NCBI GenBank assembly: GCA_963575745.1
Contig: CAUYUJ010000182.1
Location: 62,001 to 117,154 of the forward strand
DNA length: 55,154 nucleotides
Direction of reading: 5' to 3'
Origin: Prorocentrum cordatum
Taxonomy: Eukaryota
The notes under the pieces are model-generated. The model did not search any database. It saw only the letters and a program-made list of their open reading frames with translations, and was not told the origin of the DNA. Below are positions 1 through 33,416 of this stretch, one piece after another (positions within the stretch are counted from its first letter, which is position 1; each line of letters begins with the position of its first letter). A program made the position numbers and the translations under genes.

Positions 1-115
1 ATTCGTAGTTCCTAGATGAGCTGAGGTTGCTCCAGGCTGCCGTGCGCCGCGGAAAGGGCAGGAGGTTTGTTTTTTTCTAACATATGTTGCGAGGGCCAGG
101 TTTACATTTCATGAT

Positions 116-3100
116 GTGGCAGATTTCCGCGAGCAATCTCCAGGAGAACTGTTTCAGAGACTATTGCCGTTGCAGGGAGAGTGCCCAGAAGGTGGAGTGA
201 CTACTTGTGGCGAGTGGGTTCGATTGATGTGTGACGCTCAGAATGGTGGCAAAGCGCTCCCCGTGGAGGTGGCGAGGCTAGGATATCATGTTGCTACGTC
301 GGCAGAGGGTTCAGACTGGTACTTTTGGCATGCCACTGCGTTGGGATGGGGCTTCTCTCGGCGACCCGTCATCGGCAACGCGCCCACCCTCAGGCAAGTG
401 AATCACGTCATGCAGGAGTTTGGGCCATTCGATTTTGATCGCTTCGAGTCTGCATTCTTGGACCTGCCAGGGGCGGTAACCCACGACTCCAGGAGCAAGC
501 CTGTTCGAACAATTCTTGATTGGTTGGACGCGACGCGAGACTTGAAGCAAATGCGGATGAAGGATGCAGCTTGTGAAAAATGGAATAAGATCATCAGTGG
601 AGCACGCGAGGTTGAAAACGCGCCGATTGAGGAGACGGTGGGCTACAATGTGTTGCGGTACGCTCGGGTACGGGTCGACTGCGTGGCCATGTTGTTGTGG
701 AGGGAGCGGTTCGCCAGGCTCGACGGCGACGGATTCGATATACATTTGCACAGCGATGGGTCACCACAATGGGCTGGGGTGGAATTGTTCGCGTCCACGT
801 TCGATATATTGACACCTTGCGCGCAGGGCCCGAGCAAGTATCATGTGGACAGGCGCCTGCTTCCGTTGATCAGCATCGGCATGTCAATGTTCAGTGCGCT
901 TGGGAAGTGTTTCGCGCTCCTCTGGCAGGTCTTCCTCATAGCTGGGCCGCGCTTCGAAGATGTTCGCAAATTTCTTAACATAGTACGCTCGCTGACAGTT
1001 GACTTCGGCACTGAGCGGTTGCTGGCGGATTACGAGGACGTCCTGCCGTGGTTCTTCGGGTCCTGAGGCGGCGTGGTGCCGTCGAGGTTTTCGCAATTCA
1101 GTCATTTGCTGCCGCGTTGCTTGTTGGCTCCAGGGTGGCGGCGCACGGTGGATCGCATCATCGGGCGAACGCGTGGCGGCTTGCCTGTCTTCCCCCTCTT
1201 TCTCCGCAGAGTCAAAGCCATCAACAATTTCGCGAGGCACTATAGGTTGGATTTGACACGGCTGCTCAAGGATGTGGAGGCGTTCGGCGCGGCCGATCTT
1301 GTGCAGACTGCGTCTTTGCCATATTTTGCGGAGTGGAGGTGGGGAACTTTACATGGCGTCTTGAAGTCGCTCGAATCCTGCATCGCGGCCGTCGTGGCGT
1401 CGATTGACCTCGGCGCGTTTATCAAGTGGCAGACGGCAACCAAGATGGTCAAAGACGTCCAGGAGGCATTCGGATCGGGGCAGTTTCACATTGAATTGAA
1501 GTTCGTGGTGTGGTTTACCAGTTGGTTGACTGAGTTGCAGAATGCAGCGACGTGGTGTCCTTGTCATTTGGGAGCTTGCAAGAGGAAGGAGTACCCTGAC
1601 TGCAACATGCGAGGCCGTATACTGCCAATCGTTCCGGATATCAGATCACATTTCCTTGCTGAATCCATTGCTACGATAGAACAGTGGACGATCACGCAGT
1701 GGAGAGATGCAAATACATTGAGGCTTTTGCAAGGCAGCGCGCGGTGGGCGCACGGCCTGATTCTCGAGGTCGCACGGTTTGCAGATATGATCCCGCACCT
1801 TTTCAGCCGACTTGATCAGCCTCATGTGAAGGAGGAGTGCGTTCGCCAGTACACGTCGGAAAGCCACGACCAGCATCATAGAGTTTCGCAGTATTTCATG
1901 GACCCCGCTGGCCCCATGCGGCGACTAGTTGATGAGGTATCGGAGGCAGGTGAGATCAACGATGAGCATCTCAAGAGGGAGGTCGAGTCCGTCGCCAACA
2001 TCAGTCTTGACGACAATGTGAATGAGAGCCCCCACGCACACGTCAAGCGCGAGATGGGCAGATGCCGTCCAGCACTCTTTCCTTGGAATGCGTCTTCTTG
2101 CAGGTTGAACCAAAACCTAGAGGACCTGAAGTACTTAGGTTCTGGAGGGGACTCGGAATTGCAGAAGTTATTGAACGTTTGCTCGTCGACCATCCAGGTG
2201 GAGAGTAGGAAGCTTGGGCGCAACCCACGGTGTACGAAACAAGTGTTCACGGACAAGCTGTACATGGTGCTCAGCGGCTTCCGCGACGGCTTTGGCGAGG
2301 GCGATGCCGAGCAGGATGACGATGGGGATGACGATTGCCCGACCTTCGACGATGTCGACGGTGGTGGCGGAGCTCTCGTCGCGCGCCGACCTCCGAAGCG
2401 TCCTAAGCCAGATGTTGCTGCCACTGGCGACGGCGGAGGTCGACGTCGGCTTCGCGATCAGGTCGACATGGCGATGCTTGTGCGTGAGTGGCTGATCAGC
2501 TCAATCAAGCAGTTCGAGTATCTGAGCCTTTGGACTATCAACGCCGATGGCAACATGCAGATCAGAGTATTCCAGATCCTGAGTTGTAACGTCAACGTCG
2601 TGAGCGTCACGACGTTCGAGAGCACCAAGCCCAATGAGTTCGGCTTGAAGGTCTGCGTCCAAGAGCTGGAGGTGTGGAAAGTGGACACCATACGCTACGA
2701 CACGAATCTGATTGACGTGTTCACGGGCTCCCCTCCAGAGCATGTCGACATGCTCGGCCTCGTTGGCACAGACGAGAGGAACAGGCGCCAGATGAAGTAC
2801 TGGACTTGGGCCGAGTCTGACTTGGACGGCTGCCTGGCGCTCGCTTCTCCACGACCGCGCTGCCCGACGGTGGAGCTCAAGGACGCGCCTGTCCTGACTT
2901 TGCTGGAGGACCGACGCCACAGGGGATGGAGGGATGAGGGATGCGTGTCAGCGCGGCAACGGTGGAGGAAGGAGAAGACAGGCTAGCGGAGGAAGGGGGG
3001 GCAGGAGGAGAGGACGGGTGAACGAGGAGGGGGAGGAGGGAGTTTTGGTTGCTATGATCCATGTTTTCGCCGGGAGTTGGAAGCCAAGGGTTTCGTCGGC

Positions 3101-3844
3101 TGCGGCCGCATCGTGACCCGCGTCCCAGGCGGCCCCGCAGAGTTCGATCATCGCAGGCTCCCATCCAAGCGTTTTTATCTGTTATGCGTCTTGGCACAGC
3201 CGCACCTCTTTAGCAACGGGTGCGTTCAATTCAAGTCGAATGGACCTCAGGCGTACTTCAAGGCATTACTGAAGGATCCAACGGCGGTGCCAGGGCTGCC
3301 AGCAATCAAATACATTGAAAATGACGGTGAATCTCACGACGGCCCAGCTCCAGCACAACTACTGGGGCTTCCGACCAGGTCGGCCACGAGTGAGGCGGTG
3401 GCGAGAGTTGATGCAGACATCGACGGCGACGATGGCTCCCTCCATCGCGCGCCAGCCCCGCTACAGCTTGCAGATGACGGCGGCTCCAGCGCGCACTCGC
3501 ACACATCTTCGTCGCACGCTTCTGTCGATGAAGGCTCCGTGGACGGAGACACCGCTGTCGGGCCAGACTCGTGCCCGCTCTTCATCGACGGCATGACCGT
3601 CACTCGGGAGTCCCACCTTGGCCGAGGGGACTTCGGACTGAGAGTGAAGTGTTCGAACCCATCTCACGTGAATTGCAGTTGCTACCGATCAGTTAAGCTG
3701 TGGACGGAGGAGTTTGGGGTTGATGCACCAGCGTTGTTTCTGAAAACGTGGATGGCCAAGAGTTTGGTCATGGATGGTTTGGCTCACAGGAGGTGGAGGC
3801 CAGGCCGCCAGGATGTCAGATTGCATGTCCTTGCGGACTCGTGA
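116..3844 (+). pseudogene. Degenerate DDE (hAT-like, RNase H fold) transposase-like gene, ~1190 codons, with a C-terminal Cys/His domain; probably 5'-truncated by the window edge
   Basis: ORFs 116-1066, 1073-2986 and 3077-3844 share one frame. They are separated only by one TGA (1064-1066) and a 165-168 bp purine-rich insert (2909-3076). Motif order IHLHSDGSPQ (D at 755), SLTVDFGTE (D at 1001), AEWRWGT (1334-1342), DDNVNESPH (E at 2024) resembles hAT D..D..RW..E. A probable frameshift lies in the T-run near 70-77. Confidence 0.55.
2909..3076 (+). other. Short insertion or candidate GA-AG intron (introner-like) flanked by GGAG direct repeats
   Basis: It splits PVLTLLE|(E)LEAKGF and carries an in-frame TAG (2984-2986). 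GGAG occurs at 2905-2908 and 3073-3076. Removing 2909-3076 (168 bp, GA...AG) or 2909-3073 (165 bp) restores the frame. Confidence 0.6.
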
Positions 3845-5199
3845 GGTGGATGTGCAAGCGTTCGTTGCATGACGGATGTGCCATGGAGCGTTTGGCTCCA
3901 TGGACTTGTCGTCGGCGTTCCGCCGTGCAAAACACATGCGAACAAATGCTAACGCTATCGTCACAGCCACCTCCGACCCCGAAGAGACGCCCCCAGCACG
4001 CCTGCACGACCGCACTGCGATAACCACGCCACGCGCAGCACATACACTAGCAACCTCAAGCGTGCAATCCATGTACAAGCACTGCGCAATCACACGCGTG
4101 ATAACACCACACTCGCACGCGCGCGGTATATCTTACTGGCCCTAGTTGCGTAAACCTGCCCCGTATGGGGCGGGACCCTGAGGGAGGGCGAAGCCTAAAT
4201 TAATAAGTCTGGGGGGGGGGGGGGGCTCGGAGTCCGACTTGGCTGGTGGACCCTGCTAGCTGGTATCAGCGTAATGGGGCCCGTTTCGACAAAACCCCAA
4301 TTTGGGCACCCCCCTTGGCTATGGCCTCGATTGGGCGGGGCCCTTTGGCGTCAGGCCGTTTCGAGCGAGGCGCTGTGGGACGGGGCCTCGCTCCGCGATC
4401 CTCGGGGGAGGGGCACCACCAGCGCAAAGCTGGTGGTGCAACTTGTTGGGGCGGGCTTTTCAGTGCGAAAAGCTTCGGGCACATCACCTTGTGGTCTCAG
4501 CGTGCCTCGGCTTGCCGATGATTGCGGGATCCAGTGATCGGGCAGGGGGGCGAAAGGGAGCGAGCGGGCTGGCGGGCAATGGTTTCGCGGCTCTGCTCCG
4601 CATTGGCTCGATGGCTGCAAGGCGCAGCCGCCGCGAACCGTTCCCGAATTACACACAGCAGGTCGCCGATGCTGAAAACAGCCCAACGAGAAACCGCCAC
4701 TAAGGCTCGTTGGGGCAACGTGCGCGCAAACGTTGCACCACCGCGCGGTTCGTGGCATCTAACGTGCCACGCGACGTTGCCCGCGTTTGGGTTTGCGCGC
4801 GCTCAAGGATCCATTGGCCGTGGCCCGCTCCACATATAATCTGGACCCGCGGGTTGGATGCGGCGCGCCAACAAACAAGTTTACGCTTGAAGCGCACGGA
4901 GGCAACCACAACCCCAACCGACGGCCACGTTGAAGTACGAACAACACCTCTCAGGCAACGCAAGCAAGGCTCCGAACCACCCGCGCCGAACTGATGGGGT
5001 TCCCAGCATGCGCACAACGCGGCTGGCGGAACCGAAGCGATGCCCCGAGGTTGCCCAGCCGAAATGTACTCGTCATTTACGCTGGTTAACTTTGGCCACA
5101 AACCACAAAACCCGAAATGCCCGTAGGCTACGACAGCAACAGGGGTGGATTACGGACGACAAGCGGCGGCGCCATCAAGAGTTTGTCCTGGCTTGCACT

Positions 5200-7700
5200 T
5201 GAACTACGATCGCGACCACGTGAACCACCCTGGGGCAGTCCTGATATGCCCTTACGCTGCGCGCATGCCAACGGTGGGCAACGAGCGACCAACATTTGAA
5301 CCACCCTGAACTAGTTCTGAACAGCGATTGAACTGCGAGCGCGACGACGTGGGTCAACTTGCATTAACACTGAACTGTTCTTGGGCTACGCAGGTGCCAG
5401 CGGTAGGCTACGGGCGACCACAAGCTGAACCACGCTGGCCTAATCCTAAGCTGTTCTTGGGCTACGGGCGCGGCGACCTTCGCGACCTTGGGCTAATCCT
5501 GAACTGCTCTTGAACTACACCACCCACAGCGGTGGTTTACGGACAAGCAGCAGAGGCACGCTGAACTACTCCTGAACTACAACTGAACTACAAGTGCGAC
5601 GACCTGAACCGCGCTGAACTAGTCCTGAACTACCCTTGAACTACAGCGACGCCTTTGATGGGCGATGGGCTGTCACAAGCTGCACCACGCTGAACTACTA
5701 CTGCACTATTCTTGAACCACCAGAACAAGGACCTGAACTACCCTGAACTAGTCCTGAACTACCCGTGAACTACACGGCCGACAGCGACGGACCGAAGGCG
5801 TTACGGGGTTGAGCCACGCTGAACTGCTCCCGAACTACTCTTGAACTACGCTCGCGACGACCTGAACCACGCTGAACTATTTGTGAACTATCCTTGAACT
5901 ACATGGATGCGAGCGGCGGGCGGCGGGCGACCACAAGCTGAACCGCCCTGAACCAGCCCTGAACTACACTTGATCTACATGCGCGACGACCTGAACCAAC
6001 CTGAACTACTCTTGAACTAGTCTTGAACTGCAACGCCCACAGCAGCGGTGGTATATGGACAAGCAGCAGCGGAACCACGCTGAACTACTCCTGAACTACC
6101 CTTGAACTACAAGCGCGACGATCTGAACCACCCTGAACTAGACCTGAACTGCCCTTGAACTACAGCGATGCTTGCGATGGGCGATGAGCGACCACAAGCT
6201 GAACCACGCTGAACTAGTCTTGCACTACACTGGAACTACAAGCGCGAAGACCTGAACTACCCTGAACTAGTCCTGAACTACCTTTGAACTACACGGCCGA
6301 CAGCGGCGGACCGAAGTCGCCCAGGGGCTGAACCACGCTGAACTACTCCTGAACTACTCCTGAACTACGCGCGCGACGACCTGAACCACGCTGAACCACT
6401 CTTGAACTACTATTGAACTACATTGGTGCGAGCGGTGGGTGACGGGCGACCGCAAAATGAAACACCCTGAACTACTCCTGAACTACTCTTGAACTACGCG
6501 CGCGGCGACCTGAACCAACCTGAGCTACTCTTGAACTAGTCTTGAACTACACGACCGAATGCGACGGGCCGAAGGCATTCAGGGGTTGAACCACGCTGAA
6601 CTACCCCTGAACTACACTTGGACTACGAGCGCGACGGCCTGAACCACGCTGAACTACTACTGAACTACTCTTGAAACACAGCGCGGGCAGGAGTGCACCA
6701 TGGATCAGCACAAGCTGAACCACTTCGAACTAGTCCTGAATTACACTTGAACTACGCGCGCGACAGCCTGAACCACACTGAACTACTCTTGCACTACGCT
6801 TGAACAACAGCGTGCACAGGCGTGTGCCATGGACTAGCACAAGCTGAACCACCCTGAACTAGTCCTGAACTACACTTGAACTACGCGCGCGACAACTTGA
6901 ACCACCCTGAACTACCCCTGATCTACTCTTGAACTACAGCGCTCACGACGGTGGGCGCGTGGCTGCCAGTGGTCGAACCACCCTGAACCACTGCAGCACT
7001 TTTCGCCAACTACGATTGCGACGACGTTAGCTACCCCGAACTAGGCCTGTACTTCTTTTGAATTGCGCGGATGCGGGCGGCGGGCTACGGACGACCACAA
7101 GCTGAACCGCGCTGAACTACCCCTGAACTATTCTTGAACTACGAGCACGACGACCTGAACCACCCTGAACTAGCCTTGAACTGTTCTTGAACTACATTGA
7201 TGTCAGTGGTTGGCGATGGACAAGCAGCAGCTGAACCACGCTGAACTGCTCCTGAACTACCCTTGAACTACGAGCACGGCGACCTGAACCACCCTGAACT
7301 AGTCCTGAACTGCTCTCGAACTACAGCGATGCCTGATGAGCGATTGGCGACCACAGACTGAACCACGCTGAGCTACTCCTGAACTACCCTTGAACTACAA
7401 GCGCGGCGACCTGAACCACCCCGAACTAGCCCTGGACAGCCCGCGACCTACAATATTTACATTGTGCGCGCGCGGGCTGCCATAGGCTGAACCAACATGA
7501 ACTAGTGCCGAACTACTGGCGACTTACGCGCGAGGCGACCTGGACCACCCCGAACTTCAACTGAACTGCCCTGGGTCTACGCTAAGAACGGCGGTGGCGC
7601 ACGGGCGTCCGCAGTCTGATCCACCCCGAGCTTGCCCTGAACTGCGTTTGAACTGCGCGCGCGACGGCCTGAACCACCTTGAACCAGCCCTGAAATGCAT
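5200..7700. repeat. Left arm of 129-bp TGAAC-box tandem array (~19 units, decaying at both edges)
   Basis: Repeated (C/T)TGAAC(T/C)A boxes in groups of four with a CGCGACGRCC linker. A 4-unit higher-order repeat of 519 bp is visible (5645/6164, 5774/6293, 5903/6422). Confidence 0.95.
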
Positions 7701-8774
7701 TTGAATTGTTATTCCGGCAGCGGGGGGCGGCTTGCGATCAAGTCCACCACGTCGAATCACACTTGAGGTGCACGTGAGCACCACCTCCATGTTCCCACGA
7801 GCGGGGCTGGACGGGTGGGCTGCGGCCGCGTCGCGAAATACGAGGGTGCTTCGCGACGCTCTCCTCGCACCAATGGTGGCGCGTGTCGCGCCGCTGCTGG
7901 CAGTGACGGTGGAAGCGCGTTGCTTGGGCGCTTGCCCCGCGCGTTCAAGTCGAGACGGCGGGGCGCCGTCGGCGCGCCTTGGGGCGCCAAGCGCCGCCGC
8001 GCTCGCCAACCGCCTCCCTATGCCAGCGGCGTGGTGTCCAACTCGAGGGTGTCACCGGTTGGGGCTCCTGTTCGGACGCGCTGCGGGACGTCGGCGGTCG
8101 TCGATGGCGTCGGCTCGCGGGGCGGCAGTGTGCGCGACAATTCTGTGTGCGGCTGAGTGGTGCGGAGGCTCGATGTGTATGAAACCATGTGATTTCATAT
8201 GTTTCCGCGCGTGTCGGTTTGTATGCGGTGGGCGGCTGCGCGGCCGCAGTGCGCACGCCGCCCGCCGTCGCGGGCGGCGACGCAGTGCGCCGCGCCAGTG
8301 GTGTCTTCATGTGCGCGGGGCGGGTGGCGAGGGGGGCGCTGCTCGGCGGTCTACGCGGCGCGCTTGGAACTCGCGCGCGCAGCGCTCCGCACGCGCGGCG
8401 GGGGCGGCTGTATTGGGGGGGGGGGGGGGGTGCGCGCGGCAGCCTGACGTCCATAGCCAGCCTTTCGTTGGCCATCTTGCACTGCGACCCCATCGTGTTC
8501 GCAAGGGTTTTCGCTATCGCGGGCATCGCGTGGGCGCGCCTTGGGTGGAATCCGCGAGTTGTGGGGCGCGCGCCAACCGCGTCGAATGACGTTGCGACGC
8601 AAATTGTCTAGGCCTGAACCGCGCGGGCGATTTCCGCGCGCAGCCTGAGGGGCGCGGTGTATACATGCGCTGTCAGACGACGCCAGTAGTGCATCGAGGG
8701 TGATCAGGGGCCACAGCCCCTGAACCCCGTCGGGGCTATGCGGGGCGGGCGGTCGCGATCACCTGGCAGACTTT

Positions 8775-11620
8775 GAACTACCCCTGATCTAGCATTGGCT
8801 ACGACGGCAAGGGTAGCGGAGCAAGGCCGCCTAGAGGCGGTAACGCCTTGACCTGGTCTTGAGCCAGTCTTGAACTACGCGCGCGACGACCTGGACAACC
8901 TTGAACTATTCCTGGGCAACTCTTGACCTACAGAGCTCACGGGCGCGAGCCACGGGCTGGCGCAAACCGAACCATGTTGAACTAGTATTGAACTACACTT
9001 GAACTACGCGCGCGACGGCCTGAACCACCCTGAACTATTCCTGAACTACTATTGAACTACAGCGCGCACAGGCGCGAGCCACGGGCTAGCACAAGCTGAA
9101 CCACGCTTGATCTAGTCCTGAACTACACTTGAACTACGCGCGCGACGGCCTGAACCACATTGAACTACTCTTGAACTACTCCTGAACTACAGCGCCCACA
9201 GGAGTGCACCATGGACTCGCACAAGCTGAACCACTTTGAACTAGTCCTGAGCTGCACTTGAACTACGCGCGCGACGGCCTGAACCACACTGCACTACTCC
9301 TGAGCTGCTTTTGAACTACAGCGCCCACGACGGTGGGCCATGGATAAGCACAAGCTGAACCACTTTGAACTAGCCCTGAACTGCACTTGAACTACGCGCG
9401 CGACGGCCTGAACCACCCTGAACTACCACTGAACTACTTTTGAACTACAGCGCTCACGGCGGTGGGCCAACGGCGACCGCGGGCTGAACCAAATTGAACT
9501 AGTCCTGAACTACACTTGAACTACGCGCGCGACGGCCTGAACCACCCTGAACTACTACTGAACTACTTTTGAACTACAGCGCCCACAGGAGTGCAGCGAC
9601 AACCGCCAATGGCTGAACCACATTGAACTAGTGCTGAACTACACTTGAACTACGGGCGCGACGGCCTGAACCACCCTGAACTATTCCTGAACTACTCTTG
9701 AACTAGAGCGCGGACAGGAGTGCACCATGGATCAGCACAAGCTGAACCACTTTGAACTAGTCTTGCATTACACCTGAACTGCGCGCGCGACGGCCTGAGC
9801 CATCCTGAACTAATCCTGAACTGCTCCTGAACTACAGCGTGCACAGGCGTGCACCATGGACTCGCACAAGCTGAACCACTTTGAATTAGTCCTGAACTAT
9901 ACTTGAACTGCGCGCGCGACGGCCTGAACCACCCTGAACTACCCCTGCACTACTTTTGAGCTACAGCGCCCACAGGAGTGGAGCAAGAGCCACCAATGGC
10001 TGAACCACCTTGAACTAGTCCTGAGCTACACTTGAACTACGAGCGCGACGGCCTGAACCACGCTGAACTACTATTGAACTACTCTTGAACTAGAGCGCGG
10101 ACAGGAGTGCACCATGGATCAGCACAAGCTGAACCACTTTGAACTAGTCCTGAACTGCACTTGAACTACGCGCGCGACGGCCTGAGCCACCCTGAACTAC
10201 TCTTGCACTACTCTTGAACTACAGCGTGCGCAGGCGTGCCCCATGGACTACGACAAGCTGAACCACTTTGAACTAGTCTTGATCTGCACTTGAACTACGC
10301 GCGCGACAGCCTGAACCACCCTGAACTACCCCTGAACTACTCTTGAACTACGGAGCTGACAGGCGTGCGCCATCGACTAGCACAAACTGGACCACTTTGA
10401 ACTAGTCTTGAACTGCACTTGGACTGCGCGCGCGACGGCCTGAACCAAACTGAACTACCCCTGCACTACGCTTGAACTACAGCGCTGGCAGACGTGGGGA
10501 GGCGCCCAACGATGACTGAACCAGTTTGAACTAGTCTTGAACTACACTTGAACTACGCGCGCGACGGCCTGAACCACCCTGAACTACCCCTGAACTACTT
10601 TTGAATTACAATGCTCACATGAGTGGGTCGGGCGACACCAAGGCCAGAAACATTTGAACTAGTCTTGAACTACACTTGAACTACACGCGCGACGACCTGA
10701 ACCACCCTGAACTATTCCTGAACTACTCTTGAACTACAGCGCTCGCGACTGCCAGCCATGGACTAGCACAAGCTGGGCCACTTTGAACTAGTCTTGAACT
10801 ACACTTGAACTTCGCGCGCGGCGGCCCGAACCACACTGAACTACTCCTGAACTATTCTTGAACTACAGCGCCCACGACGGTTGGTCATGGACAAGCATAA
10901 GCTGAGCCACGTTGAACTAGTCCTGAACTACACTTGAACTACGCGCGCGACGGCCTGAACCACCCTGAAGTACCCCTGAACTACTTCTGAACTACAGCGT
11001 GGCAGGAGCGTTCCACGGACTAGCACAAGCTGAACCACCCTGAACTAGCCCTGAACTACACTTGAACTATGCGCGCGACGGCCTGAACCACCCTGAACTA
11101 CTCTTGAACTGCCCCTGAACTACAGCATTCACAGGCGTGTGGCATTGGCGAGCACAGGCTAAACCACTTTGAACTAATCTTGGACTATACTTGAACTACG
11201 CGCGCGACGACCTGAACCACCCTGAACTACTCCTGAACTACTCTTGAACTAAAGCGCGCACGGCGGTGATCCATGGTCAAGCACAAGCTGAACCAAATTG
11301 AACTAGTCTTGAACTACACTTGAACTACGCGCGCGACGGCCTGAACCACCCTGAACTACCCTTGAACTACTTTTGAGCTAAAGCGCGGGCAGGAGTGCAC
11401 CACGGACTAGCACAAGCTGGACCACCCTGAACTAGTCCTGAACTACACTTGAACTACGCGCGCGACGGCCTGAACCACATTGAACTACTCTTGAACTACT
11501 CCTGAACTACAGCGTCCACAGGAGTGTACCATGGACTCGCACAAGCTGAACCACTTTGAACTAGTCCTGAACTGCACTTGAACTACGCGCGCGACGCGCG
11601 GAACCACCTTGAGCTACCCC
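8775..11620. repeat. Right arm of 129-bp TGAAC-box tandem array (~22 units), same orientation as left arm
   Basis: The anchor GAACTACGSGCGCGAC recurs at 9001, 9131, 9260, 9389, 9518, 9647 ... 11580 (20 periods in 2579 bp). Confidence 0.97.
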
Positions 11621-13973
11621 TGCGCTGCTCTTGACCTGCTCTTGACCTGCGCTGCTCTTGACCTGCGAAGTCGTTACTTGCATCTTAGCAGCGCGCGCGA
11701 AGCCCTGCAAGAACGTCACGTCGCCTTGGGCTAAGATTGAACAGCCACGCCCACTGCAATGACGCCTGGGCTACCAAGCGCCGGCTACGTTGAACGGGGC
11801 TTGGGCTATTCTAGAACTGCACGCGCAAAGGGCTGCGCCGTTTCGACATGTTCTTGATCGGCGCATGGACTGCGGCGGTGGCAGCAGTAGGCCATGGGGG
11901 GAGAGTGGTACGTCCGCCCTGAGCGGATGCTGTGGTATTCTGAAACTCAGAAGACGACGGCCTGACCCATCTTGCGCTAGCATGGGCGACTCGCGCGCTG
12001 CGCCGCAGGCAAAGACGGGCTGCCGGCCGCCGAGAGAGCAGCTGCTTTTATTCATCTGCGCTTGGTCAATTCTTGAGCTGTGATGCGCGCTCACAAATCA
12101 CCCTGTGCTACACGTGAGACAGAACGTGTACACTGCGCTTAGATGCCGACGCGCCGTGGCATGACCATCTGGTATGATACGCCCGCGCTACAAGCCCAAA
12201 TCATCATGGCCAATCATTGTGCCACTTTGGGGTTCGGGGCGGCAAGCACTTGTTCGGTTCCGACTGAGAGCAAGGCAACATGCCGCGGCGACTTAGCGTC
12301 GCGTAGCCATGCGCTCCAGCAAATTAGCGCTCCGTGGCACGGGCACGAGGTGCGCGCAGGCTCGTCTCTGCCATCGCTGGGCTATGGCGGGCCAAGTGCA
12401 TAGCCGCGCACGGCTTTCCCTGGGCGGCGATTGGTTTGCGCGATCGATTGCCCAAGCCACCTCGAAGCATTGATGAAGTACTGCTGTTCTGGCCCCGAGA
12501 GCGGGCCATGCTTGCCCGACAGCAGCATTCCCCACATTGCCGCGCTGCTGCGCTGAGGTTGGGGCTGCGAAGTCCTTAGGCCTAGGCCCTGCAGAAATGC
12601 AAACGACACGCGTCGAGTCCTACGCGCATGGCCACGCGAATCGCAAAGCCGTTCTGGACCTCACTTGGGCCAGACACCGACAGCGTTGAGCTGCGGGCGC
12701 AGGGGTGCCTGGCCCAAGTTTGCTGCTCCCATCGCATGCTCAGTCGTGCGGAGGAACAGCAAATTATCATTGAGTTTCGCCAGACGCATGTCGGCGATGC
12801 CCCGACGACGTCGCCTTGCGTGTTGTTCCTACTACAGTGGGTCGTCAGCGTTGTCTTCTTGGGCGAAGCCAGCGACAAGGCCTGTGCTTCCAGTGTTTGT
12901 CGACCTGGTTTTGCGGACGTTCGGGGTGCCCGATTCGCCACGTCGCGTGACCATCAGCATGCGCGACCGAAAAGGGTCGCGGCGCAGTTTACAGCGTCCA
13001 GCGATGGCCACATTCATTCGCTTCAGCGCAGCCCGCGCGAATCCACGACGTGACGCGCAATGCAGCGCGCGAGCAAGAGTACCTAGCTTTGCTTAAGCCA
13101 AGGCTAACATATCGTGCCGTAAACAGAAAGCTGTACAAACAAGTTAGCGGTATGCGCTTAACCAAATATGCGCTCTCACAATAAAGGCCACTTGCTGCAC
13201 GGACGCGCGTCGCACTTACAGGCGCCACGCGTATGGCGCATTCGAGGCACAGCGCAGCGCCAGTATACATTGCAGTGCATACAGCACGCGCGCTGGGCAT
13301 GAGCACACACCAACGAATATCACTGGCTGGCGAGACCCCCCCAACGGGCCTCTGCAAGGGTTCTGGGGCTCTCAAAGTTCACGTGGTTGCAAATCACATG
13401 TTGCTGTCGCTTGTCGGCGCTGCGCTACGTGTTATGTTTTCTCGAGGATGCATGCGCCAACGTTTCGCAATGATGGGGGTAGATTGTCTAAGCGTGTTGT
13501 TTCTGAGGGCTCTCGCAGTTGGTCTCTTTCAAGAAAGCCCTAAGGCGGCGCGTCCGCACTCTGACTTGGTTGCTCGAATGTAAAGAACACAAGCGGTTTC
13601 ACGCCGACTTCTCGCGACCACGGCGTTCGAGGCCGCGGCGCCACATCTGAAGACCCGATGCGGCGTTGAGGCCCCGACCGCCGCGTTGTCCGGGACGGAC
13701 GACGTGAAACCGCGAAAAAAGTGGTCAGTCGGTACCAGGGCGTTGTTGTTTTTTGTTTTCTCGTGGCCTATTGGGGTCCCTCGGGGCCTATCCCAAAAAC
13801 TGTTCGGCGGGAATCTCTGTCGTGCTGGGGGCTTGTTGTTTGGAAAGGCCGCAAGTTCCCCCCAGGGCTCAAGCGGACGGAAACCAATGAAATGTCCAGC
13901 GGCATGGCCGTCATTATGACCGCACGATCCGTGAGAGCAACATTTGGATTTCGAATTCTCCATTCGCTTCCGT

Positions 13974-13995
13974 ATCGTAGCCATTATGATTCAGG
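13974..13995 (+). other. Relic dinoflagellate spliced leader (DinoSL-like)
   Basis: ATCGTAGCCATTATGATTCAGG versus DCCGTAGCCATTTTGGCTCAAG, 17/22 ungapped, ending 76 nt before ATG 14072. Confidence 0.7.
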
Positions 13996-14071
13996 GTTGT
14001 TTTCTCGACGCACCTTGCGGCCCAGGGTGAGGTGCGCGTCTCTTCACTTAACGGAGCGCCCCTCAGCAACC

Positions 14072-16693
14072 ATGTCCGTCTCTGGAGACGACGTTGACGC
14101 AGCGGAGATGCGGCCTCCTACAGCCCCGCCAGTGGCTCGCAGGAGGAGTTCTGCCAGCGATCATGCTGCTCACACCAAGGCCGAGTTCGCAGGCGCATGC
14201 TACTTCTGCCAGGAGCCGTTGCGCCCTAAGGACAACACCAAGACATGGCACGGCTACGTCTTCCACGCTAGCCCGTGCTGGAACAACATTCGGGCTCGCC
14301 AGCGCGTCTGCTATACCACCCAGAACGGCCTCAGGCGCGAGCTCGAGTTGATGAACGGCGATCCTGAGAAGTGGCGCTGCGAGGCGATGCAGTTCGATCG
14401 GCCTCACTTGGATAGCAACCGATTGCATGCGCGCGAAGCTCTGACGAAGCAGCTTGCAGACTACGTGCTCGAGCTGCAGCGCATGGCTGAGCTGACCTTG
14501 ACTGACACCGCGAAGTACACCAAGGCACAGTACAAGAAGGCGAAGTTGAGGGGCATGGATTCGGACGAGGCGAGCGCCGACTGGGACAGTGAGTACGCAG
14601 AGCACCCGACGGTCAACAAGAAGGGCGAGACGTGCATTGCCATTGAGGGCCCCGAGGTGACCAGGAAGTTGGAGGGGACGGAGCGCCAGGGCGTGAAGCG
14701 AGGTCTGATCGAGTCGGCGCCTGGAACCTCCTCTTGGAGCTCAGGGGCGGCGTCTTCTGGTGGCGATGGGGCTAGTCCAGCTTCGGGGCGAACTGGCGGG
14801 AAGAGCGGCGCCAGCCTGACGGAGATGAACATCCAGCGCCTCACGGATGCATTCAATGAGATTAGAGAGGATGACGTTATCTCAGTGGTGAGCACGCGCG
14901 CTCGCGGTTCACGCGGCGCCCGCTTGGCGCCGCAGCTGCAGCCGTCGCAGGGCTTCCTGAAACAGAAGGATGACATCGGCACCACGCTTCGGGAGATCGT
15001 CTCAAGCATCGACGGCAGCAAGAAGGAGATCGGCGCGATCAAGAAGCTCCAGGCGCTGCACACCAAGGCCGTGGAGAAGAACATTGGGGTGGGGGGTCTA
15101 CCTCATGACGTCAGCACGGTGATCGGCGACCTCTCTCGCGTGAGCTCGTTGGCCAAAGGCGAGCTCGAGAAGATCGGCCCCGCCAAGGTGGATGCAGTTC
15201 CATCTCTCGAGGAGGCGCTAACGAACATCCAGAAGCAGAAGTCCACGTGCCTCGAGCAGGTGCAAACTCTCACGGATCAGTTGAATTTCAAGTTCCAGAA
15301 GGCTTGCTCTGAGCAGAGGTCCGAATACCAGAAGAACCGCTGGGAGAAGACGAAGATCCAACATATGCTCAGCAAAGGAGGCTTTGGCCTGAACTTGTCC
15401 AAGTGGGCGTCGGAGCAGATCCACAGCACGGATAGCTTTAGTGGCGCCAGCACGGATGGCATGATCTGTTTGTGTGAGAAGGCGCAGCTCAACCCCGAGG
15501 ACGGTTCCTTCGACGTGGCCAAGCTGGCTCTCTTCACGGGCGAGAGCCCCAACGAAGACTGCCAGTCGCATAGTGTGTGGTGGGGCATGAAGTTGCTGCT
15601 GGACGATGCCGCGAAGGTCTTCATCGACAGCAAGATCACCAGCATGAAGGCTGAGATGGCCAACCACCCGCTGTGGCCAGGTGCGATGGGGGGGGTGTCA
15701 GATTGCTTCGCAAACGTCGACGCGGTCGCCACCTTGGGCGCGCAGAGCACCAAGGAGAAGGGCTCGGAGTGCTGGCTCGTGTGTGCGAGAGCTGGCGTCT
15801 ATCGCATTGGTCCTCAGAGCGTGCCCATGCCAGGCACGCCATCGATCCTTGTCGCCATGGACAAGCCGCTCTTGGTCCACGCCGTGCGCATGAAGGACTT
15901 CTTGGGCCAGGGCATCGCCGTGAACAACTACGAGCAGTTCCTCGCGACAGCGACGGGAGCAGACATCATCAAGCAGTCAACGTTGGTGATCGTCAACCCA
16001 GGGGACAGCTTGTACGTTCCCACGGCGTGGTGGTGGTCCTTGACGGTGATCGCGGGGCTCCGCGACACGGTTGCATCAGACGAGTCGAGGGCGAAGGGGC
16101 CACCGAAGGCGAAGGCGAAGGCTTCCGCCACGGCTCCAGCTCCAGGTCAGGACACGGTCGGCATGGCCACGGTGGTGCCAGTCTACTCCCCGTCGCTTTG
16201 GGGCGCCGCCCAGAGCAATGAGCAGGGGGCGATCGTCGCTTTGAACAAGGCCCACTTCGACACGAAGAAGTGTCGTGCGATGTGGGATGAGCGTGCCGCG
16301 GCATTCGGACAAGTGTTTGCCACCTCGTCGGTGAGATGGAGCTTCGAACCTAACAAGGCCCATGGCTGCGCGCTCTGGGTCAACGCATGGCAGTCCCAGC
16401 TGGTGGCACGGACATTGATGCGAGGCCCTTGCAAGCTCAGGGTGGAGTGTTTCATCAGACATGGGCGCCCGAGATCCCTTCATCAGGGCGATCGCCGTGG
16501 CATTTCATTCATTGCCTCCCCCACCTCATCATGCCAATGTGTTGTTGCATATGTGGAGCTTCGCTCTATGCACCCTGATGTTTATAATACCTGGAGCTTC
16601 GCTCTCTGCACCCTGATGTTTACTATTCCCAGAGCTTCGCTCTCAGCACGCCTGGTGTTAAGTATATCTGGGCATTCGCTCTGTAAAGCTTGA
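14072..16693 (+). CDS. Intronless hypothetical protein: N-terminal Cys/His motif, predicted coiled-coil middle, C-terminal cupin/DSBH-like motif
   Basis: Long open frame with GC3-rich codons from ATG 14072 (MSVSGDD) to ~16330. Motifs CYFC..HASPC and IVNPGDSLYVPTAWW. The 13721-14071 extension and the tail after ~16330 look non-coding. Confidence 0.75.
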   Translation: MSVSGDDVDAAEMRPPTAPPVARRRSSASDHAAHTKAEFAGACYFCQEPLRPKDNTKTWHGYVFHASPCWNNIRARQRVCYTTQNGLRRELELMNGDPEKWRCEAMQFDRPHLDSNRLHAREALTKQLADYVLELQRMAELTLTDTAKYTKAQYKKAKLRGMDSDEASADWDSEYAEHPTVNKKGETCIAIEGPEVTRKLEGTERQGVKRGLIESAPGTSSWSSGAASSGGDGASPASGRTGGKSGASLTEMNIQRLTDAFNEIREDDVISVVSTRARGSRGARLAPQLQPSQGFLKQKDDIGTTLREIVSSIDGSKKEIGAIKKLQALHTKAVEKNIGVGGLPHDVSTVIGDLSRVSSLAKGELEKIGPAKVDAVPSLEEALTNIQKQKSTCLEQVQTLTDQLNFKFQKACSEQRSEYQKNRWEKTKIQHMLSKGGFGLNLSKWASEQIHSTDSFSGASTDGMICLCEKAQLNPEDGSFDVAKLALFTGESPNEDCQSHSVWWGMKLLLDDAAKVFIDSKITSMKAEMANHPLWPGAMGGVSDCFANVDAVATLGAQSTKEKGSECWLVCARAGVYRIGPQSVPMPGTPSILVAMDKPLLVHAVRMKDFLGQGIAVNNYEQFLATATGADIIKQSTLVIVNPGDSLYVPTAWWWSLTVIAGLRDTVASDESRAKGPPKAKAKASATAPAPGQDTVGMATVVPVYSPSLWGAAQSNEQGAIVALNKAHFDTKKCRAMWDERAAAFGQVFATSSVRWSFEPNKAHGCALWVNAWQSQLVARTLMRGPCKLRVECFIRHGRPRSLHQGDRRGISFIASPTSSCQCVVAYVELRSMHPDVYNTWSFALCTLMFTIPRASLSARLVLSISGHSLCKA
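16555..16644. repeat. 38-bp tandem repeat, ~2.3 copies
   Basis: GAGCTTCGCTCT(A/C)TGCACCCTGATGTTTA units start at 16555 and 16593, with a partial copy at 16631. Confidence 0.9.
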
Positions 16694-17725
16694 TTGCATG
16701 TCGAATGGCATTCTGGTGCGCCATGCCATTCGACATCCATGTGGCGGGTTGTTGGGTCCGCGTGGCCTTTCAAGGGTGCCTTCGGGGCCCGCGCCCTCGC
16801 GAGCAAGGGATGGGGCGGGAGGGCGGGCGCGATATAAGACAACTACGTTGGGATCTGGGGAGGCTGGGGGCGAGGGGCACAGAGGGGCACGGGGTAAAAG
16901 GTCGGAAGAACGAACGAGGATGGAGGCATGATACTTGGGCGGGAGGGCGGAACGATCGCCCGTAGGACGTGCGCTGGAGGCGCGGGGGTGGCGGGGGAGG
17001 GCGGTCGCGCGGGAGGGGGGCGCGCAGCCGTCACTGACGGCTGTCGTGATCGAGTTCGGCTTTGCCGCTGCGGCATCCGAGCCGTTTACTGGACGAACCG
17101 CCCGCGTGCACTCATGGTCCAGCGACGCGCCCGTCGCGCGGAACGAGCGGCCAGATGCTGTGGCCGTGTCACAACGTATGGCCGTCGTTCACGCGCCGCG
17201 GGCGCATTGGCGGACTTTGGGTGCGAGCGCGGGGTGCGTCCAGCAAACGACGCACGTGCCGAGGTGGCGGCGCCAGACTCGATCGCGAGTGCTGAAAGTG
17301 AATGTTGTCCTGCGTGGCGCGCTTGAGGGTGCTTACGTTGACAACGCGGCCGCGCTGCGCGTCCCATTAGAGCGCGATCTCGCGAGCGCGGGCCTGCGTC
17401 AAAAGGCGTTCGGATGTTCGATGCGCTGATCTTGGCGTTGCGGGTTCGTTCGCCTCGCCGCGCAATCGCAAATTGACGACTCGTTCGGGCGTGGGCGCGC
17501 GATGCGTGCGCGTCACCACTTGCGAGTAGCATTGCGTCGGCGCGTGCGCTATTCGATGAAAACGTGAATGAATTAGAACATAAAAAACAACGAACACACC
17601 GCCGAACTATGCGGCTTGGCAGTGTGTTGTTTTTTTCCGTAGAAGTTACATGATGTGTTGAGCGTTTCTGTAGCGGATGGTTGCTTGCCAGCGCTTTGAC
17701 CGTAAGTCCGTGCCTTGCCATCCGT

Positions 17726-17890
17726 GATAACAGGTTTGCCAGAAACATGGTTGCCCGAAAACGGGTTTGCCAGATAACAGGGTTCACCACTCATCACATT
17801 TTCCGAAATACCGACGTGCAGATGACACATGTGCCAGATAGTATGTATCCCGTAATAACAGATTCGTCATATAACAGATTTGCCAGATAA
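17726..17890 (+). promoter_or_regulatory. Cluster of ATAACAGRTTTGCCAGATAA-type boxes upstream of the nuclease gene
   Basis: Copies at ~17726, 17766, 17832 and 17871; the same motif recurs at 19508-19551. The regulatory role is inference. Confidence 0.45.
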
Positions 17891-17993
17891 TTGATGATAG
17901 ATTGACGCGCGTACAATTGCAAAACATGTTTAGATGGGTTGCCTTGTATATGATTGCCGTTGGCTCAATCTTGTATTCGTGAGATCTTACTGA

Positions 17994-18059
17994 CGTGGCT
18001 CAGCTTTGCTGGCCTGTTCACTTTCCGCGTCTTGGCGTGGCTCAGCTTTGCTGGCCTGT
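17994..18059 (+). promoter_or_regulatory. Two copies of a conserved 24-nt 5' hairpin motif (CGTGGCTCAGC-TTT-GCTGGCCTGT)
   Basis: Identical copies at 17994-18017 and 18036-18059, upstream of ATG 18115. Confidence 0.6.
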
Positions 18060-18114
18060 CCACTATCAGTAACTATAGGACCAGCTTTGCTGTCCTATCG
18101 TCTCGTTGTCATCA

Positions 18115-19318
18115 ATGGCCGCTCCTGTCTCTCGCCAGATCCTGGTGTGTTTCAACCACTTGCTGCCCGACATCGCGGCGCGCGGTGTGCCGCTGGAGAG
18201 GCTCGGCTTCAAGCCTGGCGACTGGGGCAGCGGAGTCGCCTCGGCTGTCGCCGTCGACGCGTGGGACTTGGCCGCGCCGCTGGAATACGGATTCAGAGCG
18301 ACCGATCGCTGCGCCAAGGTCCTTTCCGTGGCGGTGGCGGCGTTGAGTCGCCCAGTTCAGTGGCCGACCATGAATGCCATCGCCCAGCCGCAGTTGGGCC
18401 GCCGAACCGTTAAGAGCTGTCCCCGGTGGGCGCAGTCGTGCGCGTGCGCAGTGCCCGCCGGGGGGGGGGCGCGAACAGTGACCGCGCTATCCAGCCAGCC
18501 CCGTCGCTCGAGCTTGGCGGTCGTCCTGAGCGACGAGAACGCTGCGGGCCGCGCCGGAGGCTGCTCTCCTGCACGAGTTTCTTGTGTCGCACGGTGCCTG
18601 CGACGCCGAGATCTGCGCCGAGGTGAAGGCCACTGCGAGAGCGGCTCCCCGCCTGGCATGCCTGATGGAGAGTTTATCCCTCTCGGATCCGGAGATCGTA
18701 GAGAAATGACGCCTGAACAAGGAAGAGGCGGCTAGGCGGGGCACCTGGATGCACTGGACGTTCGAGGCCCACCTCAACCGCGTTCCGGTACCCCGCGACG
18801 CCGTGGAGTTCCAGTTATTCCTGAAATACTTGGGCGCGCTGAGAGGTCTGACGGCTTTCCGCGCAGAGTGGGCCATATTCGCCGGGCACGAGGGGCTTGC
18901 TGGGTCAATCGATTTCGTGGCTCGAGACTCCGCGGGCAGCTTGTACATATACGATTGGAAGCGGGCGAAGAATTTACGTTCAAAGTACACGAACCCGTTG
19001 CAGAATATGAAGTTTCCATTGAGCCGATGGCCAGACTGCCAGGGAAACTATTACCGGGTGCAGCTCAACATTTACAGGTGGATGCTGGAACGTTACTACG
19101 GCGCCCGCGTGGCTGCGATGCATGTGGTCTGCCTGCATCCGGACAACGGCGACCAGCCATTCGTGGACGACGTGCCGGTGATCCCAGAGATCGAGGAGCC
19201 CATGGCCATTCAACGCACGAGGTCCCGAGAGTTGCGAGCCATGGCATCGGAAGACGCTAGCGAGATGGACCCTCTGGGCGGCTGGCCGCGGCCAGTCGTA
19301 GCGGCGCGCTTGCCTTAA
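18115..19318 (+). pseudogene. PD-(D/E)XK (RecB/Cas4-superfamily-like) nuclease, disrupted
   Basis: RGTWMH just 5' of ORF 18749, then FRAEW, GSIDFV..IYDWKR and YRVQLNIY. An in-frame TGA lies at 18707-18709 (EIVEK*RLNKEEAARRGTWMH) and a frameshift near 18680. The 5' extent is uncertain. Confidence 0.8.
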
Positions 19319-24689: not shown

Positions 24690-25080
24690 TGACGACGATG
24701 ACGCTGACGACCACGACAACGATGATGATTGTGATGATGACGAGGACATTGATGATGCTGATGATGCTGATCGTGTTGGTGATGCAGACGATGATGCGGA
24801 TGCTGATACTGGCGATGGTGATGATAATGCTGGTTGTGTTGATGGTGATGATTGTTTTGATGAAAATGCTGCTGGTGATGATGACGGGTGGTGATGATGT
24901 TGATGGTGATGTTGAGGTTGATGGTGATGTGGTGATGATGTTGACGATTATGGTGATGATGTTGATGCTGCTGATGGTGGTGAATATTAGGAGGATGTTG
25001 CTGGTGCTGTTGATGCTTATTCAGCGTATGATGATGAATGTGATTCGGATGATGGTTCTGTTGCGCCGGGATGCTGAATG
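24690..25080. repeat. Degenerate (GAT)n microsatellite
   Basis: Direct reading. Confidence 0.9.
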
Positions 25081-25082: not shown

Positions 25083-25182
25083 NNNNNNNNNNNNNNNNNN
25101 NNNNNNNNNNNNNNNNNNNNNNNNNNNNNNNNNNNNNNNNNNNNNNNNNNNNNNNNNNNNNNNNNNNNNNNNNNNNNNNNNN
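25083..25182. other. Assembly gap (100 N)
   Basis: Run of N; true distance unknown. Confidence 1.
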
Positions 25183-30410: not shown

Positions 30411-30450
<40 letters not shown>

Positions 30451-30532
30451 CTACTACTACTACTAGTACTGGTAGTACTAGTAGGAGTAGTCGCAGTCGC
30501 AGTCGTAGTCGTAGTCGTAGGTTAGTAGTAGC

Positions 30533-30576
<44 letters not shown>

Positions 30577-30608
30577 TAGTCGTGGTCGTAGTAGTAGTAG
30601 TAGTAGTC

Positions 30609-30652
<44 letters not shown>

Positions 30653-30780
30653 TAGTAGTAGTAGTAGTAGTAGTAAGTCGAGTAGTAGTTAGTAGTTAGT
30701 AAGTTCTAGTAGTAGTAGTTTAGTAGTAGTAGTGGTGGTAGTGTAGTAGTGTAGTGGTAGTGTAGTAGTGGTCGTAGAGT

Positions 30781-30829
<49 letters not shown>

Positions 30830-31075
30830 CGTTTAGTAGTTGTAGTGTAGTAGTAGTCGTAGTAGTAGTAGTCGTAGTAGTTAGTAGTAGTAGTAGTTGT
30901 AGTAGTAGTAGTGTTGTTGTGGTAGTTGTCGGGGTTCGTAGTAGTAGTAGTAGTCGTAGTAGTAGTAGAAGTGTAGTTGGTAGTAAGTAGTAGTAGTAGT
31001 AGTAGTGTTAGTGGTAGTGGTAGTGGTTAGTGGTAGTTTGGTAGTGGTAGTTGTGTGGTCGTAGTATTAGTATAT

Positions 31076-31112
<37 letters not shown>

Positions 31113-31510
31113 CGTAGTAGTATTAGTATTAGTAGTAGTTCAGTATAGTGTAGTAGTAGTAGTAGTAGTCGTAGTAGTAAGTTAGTAGTACAGTAGTAGT
31201 AGTAGTAGTGGTAGATAGTAGTAGTAGAGTAGTAACAGTAACGACGTAGTAGTAGTAGTGTAGTAGTAGTTAGGAGTAGTAGTAGTGTAGTAGTAGTAGT
31301 AGTAGTAGTAGGAGTTAGAGTAGTTCGTAGTAGTATATGTAGTAGTAGTAGTAGTAGTAGTAGTCGTAGTAGTTAGTAGTAGTAGTAGTAGTAGTTAGTA
31401 GAGTAGTAGTAGTAGTTAGCAGTAGTTAGTTAGTAGTAGTGGTAGTGGTAGTGGTAGTGTAGTGTAGTTAGTGAGTAGTAGTAGTTAGCTGTGTATTAGT
31501 AGTAGTAAGT

Positions 31511-31557
<47 letters not shown>

Positions 31558-31574
31558 ATAGTAGTAGTAGTAGC

Positions 31575-31624
<50 letters not shown>

Positions 31625-31750
31625 AAGAAGTAGAAGTAGTAGTAGTAAGAGTAGTGGTAGTAGTGGTAGTGGTGGTGATGGTGGTGGTATTTGTAATTGT
31701 TGTTGTAGTAGTAGTAGTAGTAGTAGTAGAAGAAGAAGAAGAAGTAGTAG
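30411..31750. repeat. Long imperfect (AGT)n microsatellite
   Basis: Direct reading; it abruptly truncates the copia remnant. Confidence 0.97.
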
Positions 31751-33289: not shown

Positions 33290-33294
33290 GTGTT

Positions 33295-33334
<40 letters not shown>

Positions 33335-33335
33335 C

Positions 33336-33366
<31 letters not shown>

Positions 33367-33368
33367 GC

Positions 33369-33416
<48 letters not shown>

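Follow-up and report, generated by a model that had tools for sequence, protein, structure and literature searches.

The window analysed here, a 55,154-nucleotide stretch of the dinoflagellate Prorocentrum cordatum (assembly GCA_963575745.1, contig CAUYUJ010000182.1, positions 62,001 to 117,154 of the forward strand), contains two arrays of a 129-bp satellite that is composed of copies of an 8-bp box, TGAACYAC. The arrays are intergenic nuclear DNA between two co-directional genes (12-3004 and 14072-19315, both on the + strand), and the boxes run along the sense strand of both genes. Array A (5196-7434, + strand, 2.2 kb) was reported by Tandem Repeats Finder (TRF) with 17.4 copies, 71% matches and 2% indels, and additionally with a period of 387 bp; array B (8869-11634, + strand, 2.8 kb) was reported with 21.4 copies, 82% matches and 1% indels. 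Sub-periods of 11, 21 and 53 bp were found inside the arrays. The locus belongs to the satellite DNAs that combine higher-order repeats with a conserved box, its units being head-to-tail and non-coding, with the 387-bp higher-order period and with homogenised cores flanked by degenerate edges. An earlier reading of the same sequence (hereafter the original prediction) had described a single 129-bp array at 5200-11620; the period was recovered, but TRF resolved two same-strand arrays, split by a 1.4-kb spacer (7435-8868).

Between 5100 and 11700 the core TGAAC has 250 occurrences on the + strand and a single one on the - strand, compared with 36 on the + strand of the remaining 48 kb. The full box has 172 matches in the window (2.44 +/- 1.59 in shuffled sequences), 168 of which lie within 5200-11586, every one on the + strand; the other four are at chance level. 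The register of the units was tracked by their match to a reference unit. Regarding array A, unit starts run from 5297 to 7617, with periods of 129 bp (15 of 18), 126 bp, 132 bp and 127 bp. Regarding array B, they run from 8968 to 11547, with periods of 129 bp (17 of 20), 130 bp and, twice, 128 bp; the 20 periods add up to 2579 bp, the figure given in the original prediction. Taking both arrays together, a length of exactly 129 bp is found in 32 of the 38 tracked periods, the others being 126, 127, 128, 128, 130 and 132 bp.

Each unit carries eight boxes at offsets 0, 10, 21, 32, 53, 63, 74 and 85, so that it divides into 53 + 76 bp. The boxes form two quartets with an internal spacing of 10/11/11 bp, separated by gaps of 21 and 44 bp. 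In the unit starting at 9227, where these offsets were first noticed and are borne out by the units printed in register, the first quartet (offsets 0, 10, 21 and 32) occupies 9227-9266, a CpG-rich short linker of 13 nt, GCGCGCGACGGCC, 9267-9279, the second quartet (offsets 53, 63, 74 and 85, in agreement with the 53-bp TRF sub-period) 9280-9319, and a long linker of 36 nt, the most variable part of the unit, 9320-9355 (all + strand). The boxes with one mismatch in this unit are those at offsets 21, 63 and 74. Box flavours depend on the position in the unit: the first box of each quartet is TGAACCAC, the remaining ones are TGAACTAC or TGAACTAG. Among the 296 lattice positions of the 37 aligned units, 226 carried an exact box and 47 a box with one mismatch as scored; together with six shifted boxes in the unit at 9098 there are 232 exact boxes, all of which (232/232) sit on the eight offsets when a one-base register shift at 9098 is allowed.

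Clustering at 70% identity separates the long linkers into nine groups, all of equal length. These linkers contain a weak inverted repeat (64.3% of the cells paired, compared with 61.5% in shuffles, 43 of 500 shuffles being as high), and 10 of 500 shuffles attained their covariation score; the hairpin signal is weak and derives mostly from the consensus. Among residual 'ghost' boxes in the linkers the best one, with 3.48 mismatches out of 8 (linker mean 5.82), coincides with a lattice point, offset 107, as would be expected if the linkers were overwritten boxes. The linkers are not plainly degenerate boxes, given that this ghost was the one convincing case and that the mean score of a position weight matrix (PWM) was below -17 bits at every linker offset.

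At either rim the spacer consists of degenerate units, and its core is GC-rich (66% GC in 8001-9000); the non-repeat part of this core, read directly from the sequence, extends from 7746 to 8838. A run of approximately 14-18 G was observed inside the spacer at 8415-8432. The decaying right edge of array A (7359-7745, + strand) comprises three units in 129-bp register, with 106 mismatches and two one-base gaps relative to three consensus units; the box cores of these units match at 31-35 of 40 positions. Array B stops abruptly at 11625-11667 in another short repeat (a 16-bp unit present twice at 100% identity, with an 11-bp sub-period).

The original prediction that all six frames are closed holds within the arrays, where open stretches do not exceed 85 codons in any frame, but not for the spacer core, which contains a 294-codon open stretch. 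The spacer open frame 7732-8589 (285 aa) had no match in Pfam. A coding repeat was rejected, as stops close all six frames within the arrays, and the idea that the reverse strand resembles a tRNA B-box was discarded because the conserved positions do not fit. Searches of the arrays for Rfam and tRNA matches yielded none, and the folds of the unit on either strand (six folds, z from +0.58 to -1.67) were no better than those of shuffled sequences. Both results, together with a 10.75-bp spacing that has no obvious meaning in single-stranded RNA, speak against a role of the arrays as RNA, with approximately 300 UGAACYAC motifs acting as a sponge or scaffold for RNA-binding proteins or as a source of small RNAs. 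Such a role is highly improbable, although read-through transcription is conceivable between two genes of the same direction whose sense strand carries the boxes, and although dinoflagellates, according to the accessible part of one source (PMC12787238), depend heavily on RNA-binding proteins.

The upstream gene (12-3004, + strand) was located by tblastn with residues 56-1050 of P0002 (61% identity) and matched no family in Pfam. In the window copy a stop separates two open reading frames (ORFs), 116-1066 and 1073-2986; a 1053-aa database protein aligns to 12-3004 straight across this stop, which may reflect a pseudogene, a sequencing error or an unannotated intron. The downstream gene (14072-19315, + strand) was placed by P0001, which maps there in four pieces; the ORF 13721-16693 shows 97% identity to P0001, listed as 'unnamed protein product [Prorocentrum cordatum]', and it is this match that assigns the DNA to P. 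cordatum or a very close relative. The start of the gene lies 2.4 kb beyond the end of array B. Ten ORFs of the window and two database relatives of the flanking genes were compared with Pfam, and no family was obtained at a meaningful score. Neither this search nor the neighbouring ORFs revealed a gene for origin, partition or packaging functions adjoining the arrays. The original prediction had named an origin and a partition site among the possible roles; no initiator, par or packaging gene was found beside the arrays, and no AT-rich unwinding region.

Copies of the locus were sought in independent sequencing runs. Sampled words of the stretch were recovered to 45% in the DNA run X1 (organism A) and to 6-7% in two metagenome runs. 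A total of 391 X1 contigs fitted the stretch with a likeness of at least 85% (136 at 99% or above, 126 at 95-99%, 85 at 90-95% and 44 below 90%); 114 of the 391 fitted two places, and many continue into unlike sequence. One X1 contig diverges exactly at 11625-11667, where array B stops, with many small insertions. The summed contig depth was 20-318 in the bins of the arrays and 3.6-14 in the flanks and the spacer, which is not a copy number, being inflated by repetition within the locus. Contigs from the metagenome runs cover single units and the spacer with 0/222, 5/212, 1/154 and 8/151 differing letters, for example 5795-6016 (222 letters, no difference) and 8433-8586 (154 letters, one difference). 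As parts of the locus are found, little changed, in contigs of three studies, the locus is real and fairly stable between samples. (Note that run X4, from organism B of the same study, yielded six contigs, each 31 letters long, which matched the G-rich spacer and not the arrays; such contigs cannot show absence.) An assembly artefact, in which the repeat had been collapsed or mis-expanded, is scarcely credible in view of these contigs from three separate studies and of units that, being 70-94% identical, are diverged enough for unique placement; what speaks for it is the general difficulty of assembling tandem repeats and a 100-N scaffold gap at 25083-25182.

The X1 contigs that fit the arrays at 85-99% and then enter unlike sequence (391 contigs, 114 of them two-place) could also be read as the trace of a mobile element or a dispersed segmental duplication that was the source or carrier of the arrays, whose distribution would then reflect transposition rather than any local role. 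The P. cordatum genome, as described in the available part of the genome paper (PMC10666404), measures 4.15 Gb, is repeat-rich, has mostly unidirectional genes with a mean intergenic distance of 26 kb, and counts 64.8% of its genes as dispersed duplicates, which would suit such an origin, as would the lack of a known family in both flanking genes. Arguing against it, no inverted repeats of at least 18 bp were found in 3000-14100, so that the arrays are not enclosed by terminal inverted repeats; families of transposase, integrase or reverse transcriptase were not detected among the ORFs tested; and the summed depth was low in flanks and spacer compared with the arrays. This origin is accordingly considered quite improbable.

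Identity to the consensus was determined for the core of each array (17 units of array A and 19 of array B, one B unit being omitted for its register shift) and for eight degenerate edge or odd units. The box cores (TGAAC) reached 0.92 in array A, 0.96 in array B and 0.79 (253/320) at the edges; the corresponding values were 0.86, 0.93 and 0.76 for the box extensions, 0.77, 0.81 and 0.67 for the inter-box bases, 0.84, 0.97 and 0.84 for the short linker, and 0.68, 0.76 and 0.57 for the long linker, the last value being pulled down by edge unit B11547, which overruns the end of the array (2 of its 36 long-linker columns matching). From core to edge the loss was 0.07-0.15 per class, and boxes lost as much as any other class. 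The expectation that boxes are better kept than linkers was thus confirmed in the cores of the arrays but not at their edges, where boxes decay like everything else. Decay of CpG was rejected as the cause of the variable linkers: in non-CpG columns the inter-box bases showed 0.78/0.81 and the long linker 0.67/0.79, compared with 0.92/0.96 for the boxes (arrays A/B), so that non-CpG linker columns vary most, and few parts are as uniform as the short linker, which is rich in CpG.

A comparison of indels with substitutions between units, as had been proposed, revealed only two one-base gaps against 212 mismatches over 774 bp of decaying edge, which nonetheless stays in 129-bp register. Two other repeats with longer units in the window (63 bp and 249 bp) likewise have 0% indels at 76% and 93% matches (TRF). 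Rare indels therefore appear to be a property of the DNA in this region rather than of selection, and tight length is by itself no evidence of selection. Regarding the original observation that unit length is tightly held while the sequence between boxes varies, both halves were seen, but the length is just as constant in the decaying edges.

The mean pairwise identity of units was 0.70 within array A, 0.81 within array B and 0.71 between the arrays, the best pair reaching 0.94. The units are old, with array A the older and more diverged and array B the more uniform of the two. Best partners of units lie at a lag of three or four: in array B a three-unit block was duplicated together (9485-9871 and 9872-10258), and in array A a four-unit block (5552-6070 and 6071-6586). 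Directly following the latter, array A contains three units of B type (6587-6973, + strand), the best partners of which are B units (identities 0.91, 0.90 and 0.84), which shows exchange between the arrays.

The arrays are best explained, in our opinion with somewhat better than even probability, as a so far undescribed hierarchical satellite whose phasing was inherited from an ancestral repeat of approximately 10.7 bp. The nested periods of 10/11, 53, 129 and 387 bp were counted in favour of this explanation. The ancestral repeat would have consisted of the 8-bp box TGAACYAC and two to three variable bases; it would have given rise to a module of four boxes and a linker (approximately 53-54 bp), two of these modules, one with a linker of 13 nt and one with a linker of 36 nt, would have formed the 129-bp unit (53 + 76), and blocks of three or four units would then have been duplicated locally. 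This order of steps is the one that the nesting of the periods suggests. The 10.75-bp lattice (129/12) would be a legacy of the approximately 10.7-bp repeat, the linkers filling whole numbers of former box slots, and for this reason the lattice needs no selection. In-register unequal exchange and gene conversion would keep the cores uniform while the edges decay by substitution, and the same processes would have carried the three-unit block from one array to the other. A sequence-specific factor would probably not be required for any of this.

Several observations weigh against the hierarchical satellite as a complete account, which does not easily explain the uniformity of boxes and short linker or the fixed number of box slots. 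In both arrays the inter-box bases and the long linker vary more than the box cores do (Mann-Whitney p 3e-5 to 6e-10), and they are likewise less uniform than the short linker of array B (0.97). All 37 of 37 units have 4 + 4 box slots. Between long-linker types the identity is 0.47-0.50 (shuffles 0.30), compared with 0.81 for the rest of the unit, while the length is unchanged; this divergence at equal length alongside a kept remainder is the strongest hint of constraint in the sequence. The second-best ghost box by PWM score, at offset 114, lies off the lattice. A purely neutral model must invoke either old differences between founder units or conversion among boxes.

The chromosomes of dinoflagellates are permanently condensed and largely without nucleosomes. 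Against this background, the arrays might alternatively be a protein-docking lattice, in which a factor binds TGAACYAC and loads cooperatively on same-face quartets, with the linkers setting the geometry between quartets and the whole acting as a chromatin-organising, boundary, attachment or centromere-like platform in nucleosome-poor chromatin; this is a possible reading, but a distinctly less probable one than the hierarchical satellite, and to our knowledge there is no candidate binding protein for the box. The uniform boxes and the fixed slots would be accounted for by a protein that recognises the box and loads on quartets, given that variation in both arrays, independently of CpG, is greater in the inter-box bases and the long linker than in the boxes and the short linker, that all boxes share one orientation (+ strand), and that 4 + 4 boxes are fixed here whereas a box family found in metagenomes (see below) ranges from about 7 to 11. 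On the other side stand the edge boxes, which decay at the same pace as other positions, the length, which is equally constant in those edges, and the chance-level number of boxes (four) in the window outside the arrays.

The position of the boxes on the double helix bears directly on docking. The original prediction of an approximately 10.7-bp box lattice with 129 = 12 x 10.75 was corroborated by resultant-vector analysis, which gave best box periods of 10.76 bp in array A (R 0.73) and 10.74 bp in array B (R 0.91), i.e., 129/12. The helical repeat of B-DNA in solution is approximately 10.4-10.6 bp. With 10.5 bp per turn, the spread of the eight boxes inside a unit does not exceed +/-0.1 turn (within-unit R 0.97), which favours docking, but the next unit is rotated by 0.286 turn, and over the range of 10.4-10.6 bp each following unit turns by 0.17-0.40 turn. 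Phase coherence along the arrays is R 0.69 (A) and 0.85 (B) at 10.75 bp, compared with 0.15 (A) and 0.05 (B) at 10.5 bp, so that long-range phase is lost at the latter value. Furthermore, six of the 38 periods carry phase-shifting length changes of 1-3 bp. The claim that every box falls on the same helical face is consequently valid inside a unit, but not along the arrays unless the DNA has 10.75 bp per turn. A docking protein might, as an unlikely extension of this reading, polymerise along the quartets on a lattice tuned to underwound DNA (approximately 2% fewer turns than at 10.5 bp), which would align some 300 boxes into a sequence-defined anchoring or bundling element of nucleosome-poor, liquid-crystalline chromosomes. 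The helical-face and held-length arguments, two of the three for a function, are weaker than they first appeared.

Related forms of the repeat were detected outside the window. Contig joints in X1, and at higher depth in the metagenome runs, jump back from 6883 to 6843 with 13 or 34 other letters. These joints indicate, by derivation from the joints themselves rather than from whole arrays, repeats of 54 bp (41 + 13, a quartet plus 13 nt) and of 75 bp (41 + 34, with an extra box at +21); the 13-nt linker of the 54-bp form does not occur in the window. Both forms retain the lattice of approximately 10.7 bp (54 = 5 x 10.8, 75 = 7 x 10.7, 54 + 75 = 129), a point in favour of docking; the two forms also count in favour of the hierarchical satellite.

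A scan of metagenomes for the fourth box, a linker and the first box with a free gap of 6-36 nt yielded seven loci, none of them of the 129-bp family. A different box satellite was observed in metagenome contigs of 40-48% GC, namely the overlapping L001 and L002 (L001 at 1940-4125), L004, L006 and L007: approximately 7-11 boxes of TGAACTAC + YGG at 11 bp are followed by a constant AT-rich linker of 58-59 nt, L006 having the same build as L001, L004 and L007 with a diverged linker. Its units measure 147-190 bp and vary by whole boxes, with 8% indels (TRF), and the box-to-box gap over the linker is 69-70 bp, approximately 6.5 lattice periods, and thus out of phase; the out-of-phase gap and the variable box numbers count against docking. 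L005 (reverse strand, approximately 1912-2020), on a metagenome contig of 50% GC, is a plain 8-bp microsatellite (TGAACTAC/TGAACCAC) repeated approximately 13 times without spacers. L008, a viral contig of 56.8 kb and 27% GC, has three intergenic arrays of TGAACTAC + AA/AAA with up to approximately 22 boxes at 10/11-bp spacing (reverse strand, approximately 200-290, 1459-1545, 1660-1870 and 1950-2200), which adjoin a gene of approximately 33-residue repeats. Conservation of the box across kingdoms was rejected: the box triple was found at one viral locus, compared with 3, 4, 4 and 4 loci for four permuted control cores, i.e., at chance level, and viral contigs being no richer in the triple than the controls again speaks against docking. 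Taken together, array cores and related forms argue for a protein-loading lattice, as originally proposed in preference to a neutral satellite, whereas edges, twist and length constancy argue against it; sequence tests do not separate the two.

The literature searched on P. cordatum, on dinoflagellate satellites and tandem repeats and on the 8-mer of the box contained no description of this repeat. The word 'satellite' is absent from the available part of the P. cordatum genome paper (PMC10666404), and both 'satellite' and 'centromere' are absent from a review of dinoflagellate genomics (PMC11453091). Nor were cis-acting sequences for chromosome architecture, attachment or segregation in dinoflagellates described in the literature searched. 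A satellite with a conserved 8-bp box and rigid spacing provides a cheap and concrete probe in a culturable bloom-forming species. If the docking lattice were true, it would be a first candidate for a cis-acting sequence of chromosome architecture or attachment in dinoflagellates; if the arrays are only a hierarchical satellite, they are a clean example of an apparent 'helical-phase' design arising from repeat ancestry alone, and they also show that tight conservation of length is not in itself evidence of selection.

The GC content of the window is 50-66% in most 1-kb bins and 53-56% in the arrays, and the window is rich in long microsatellites. Very long ones are formed by (AGT) with approximately 446 copies, (TTG) with 141 and 56 copies, (TGTTGT) with 40 copies, and (GAT)/(GATGAT); they are located at 30411-31756, 45830-46252, 47408-47574, 33291-33529, 24721-24976 and 34119-34575. 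In Amphidinium carterae, peaks of 5-hydroxymethyluracil carry a GTTGTTGTTG-type motif according to the accessible part of a preprint (bioRxiv 10.1101/2023.11.30.569493). The TTG/GTT runs of the window fit this motif; a link between 5-hydroxymethyluracil and the satellite box was rejected, as the GTTGTTGTTG-type motif differs from the box. The 249-bp repeat lies at 46437-47009 (2.3 copies, 93% matches, no indels) in an island of 39% GC within a neighbourhood of otherwise 56-66% GC. The tetranucleotide (GTGC) is repeated approximately 58 times at 40561-40793 (96% matches), in a strongly G-skewed 1-kb stretch (GC skew +0.57).

Among known systems, the iterons of plasmids and viruses are direct short repeats in one orientation with helical-turn spacing. 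The arrays differ from them by the lack of an initiator gene, of an AT-rich unwinding element and of a plasmid or viral context, and by a GC content of 53-56% (spacer 66%). The parC site of plasmid R1, as described in the available part of its report (PMC2241845), has two sets of five 11-bp repeats, 39 bp apart, each repeat binding a ParR dimer cooperatively; its two clusters of approximately 11-bp direct repeats, split by an unbound linker, resemble the quartet-linker-quartet geometry of the 129-bp unit, a likeness that adds some support to docking. However, parC is a single 159-bp site beside parM and parR on a bacterial plasmid, whereas approximately 38 modules are present here in eukaryotic nuclear DNA, and Pfam revealed no parR or parM gene among the neighbouring ORFs. 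The likeness serves as a working analogy only and would not imply membership.

An alveolate precedent for bound motif arrays, likewise in favour of docking, is SPE2 of Plasmodium falciparum. According to the accessible part of its description (PMC2829057), sense-oriented tandem motif arrays lie approximately 2 kb upstream of genes and are bound by the ApiAP2 protein PfSIP2, which is comparable to the position of array B 2.4 kb before the next gene. SPE2 differs in its bipartite 6+4+6-bp motif, present in about eleven copies spaced by 12 bp, and in its location at chromosome ends (PMC2829057, same part); the motif in the P. cordatum arrays is a different one. As the defining genes and contexts are absent, the arrays are not members of the parC or the SPE2 family. 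Like satellites of the CENP-B-box type, the arrays have in their cores a short box that is kept better than the rest of the unit; their edge boxes decay like the rest.

Older satellites built from 9-12-bp sub-repeats are known. The closest parallels are found among hierarchical satellites, such as alpha-satellite, the mouse satellites and the complex satellites of Drosophila, with which, as far as the available part of the source goes (PMC8122249), the arrays share head-to-tail non-coding units of approximately 100-200 bp, amplification in multi-unit blocks, a length kept despite 20-30% divergence, a short conserved box in a variable unit, and homogenised cores with degenerate edges. They differ from classical satellites in that the unit is built from a single 8-bp box, present eight times on a lattice of 10.75 bp, in the dinoflagellate host with chromatin largely without nucleosomes, and in the small size (2.2 and 2.8 kb) and intergenic location of the arrays.

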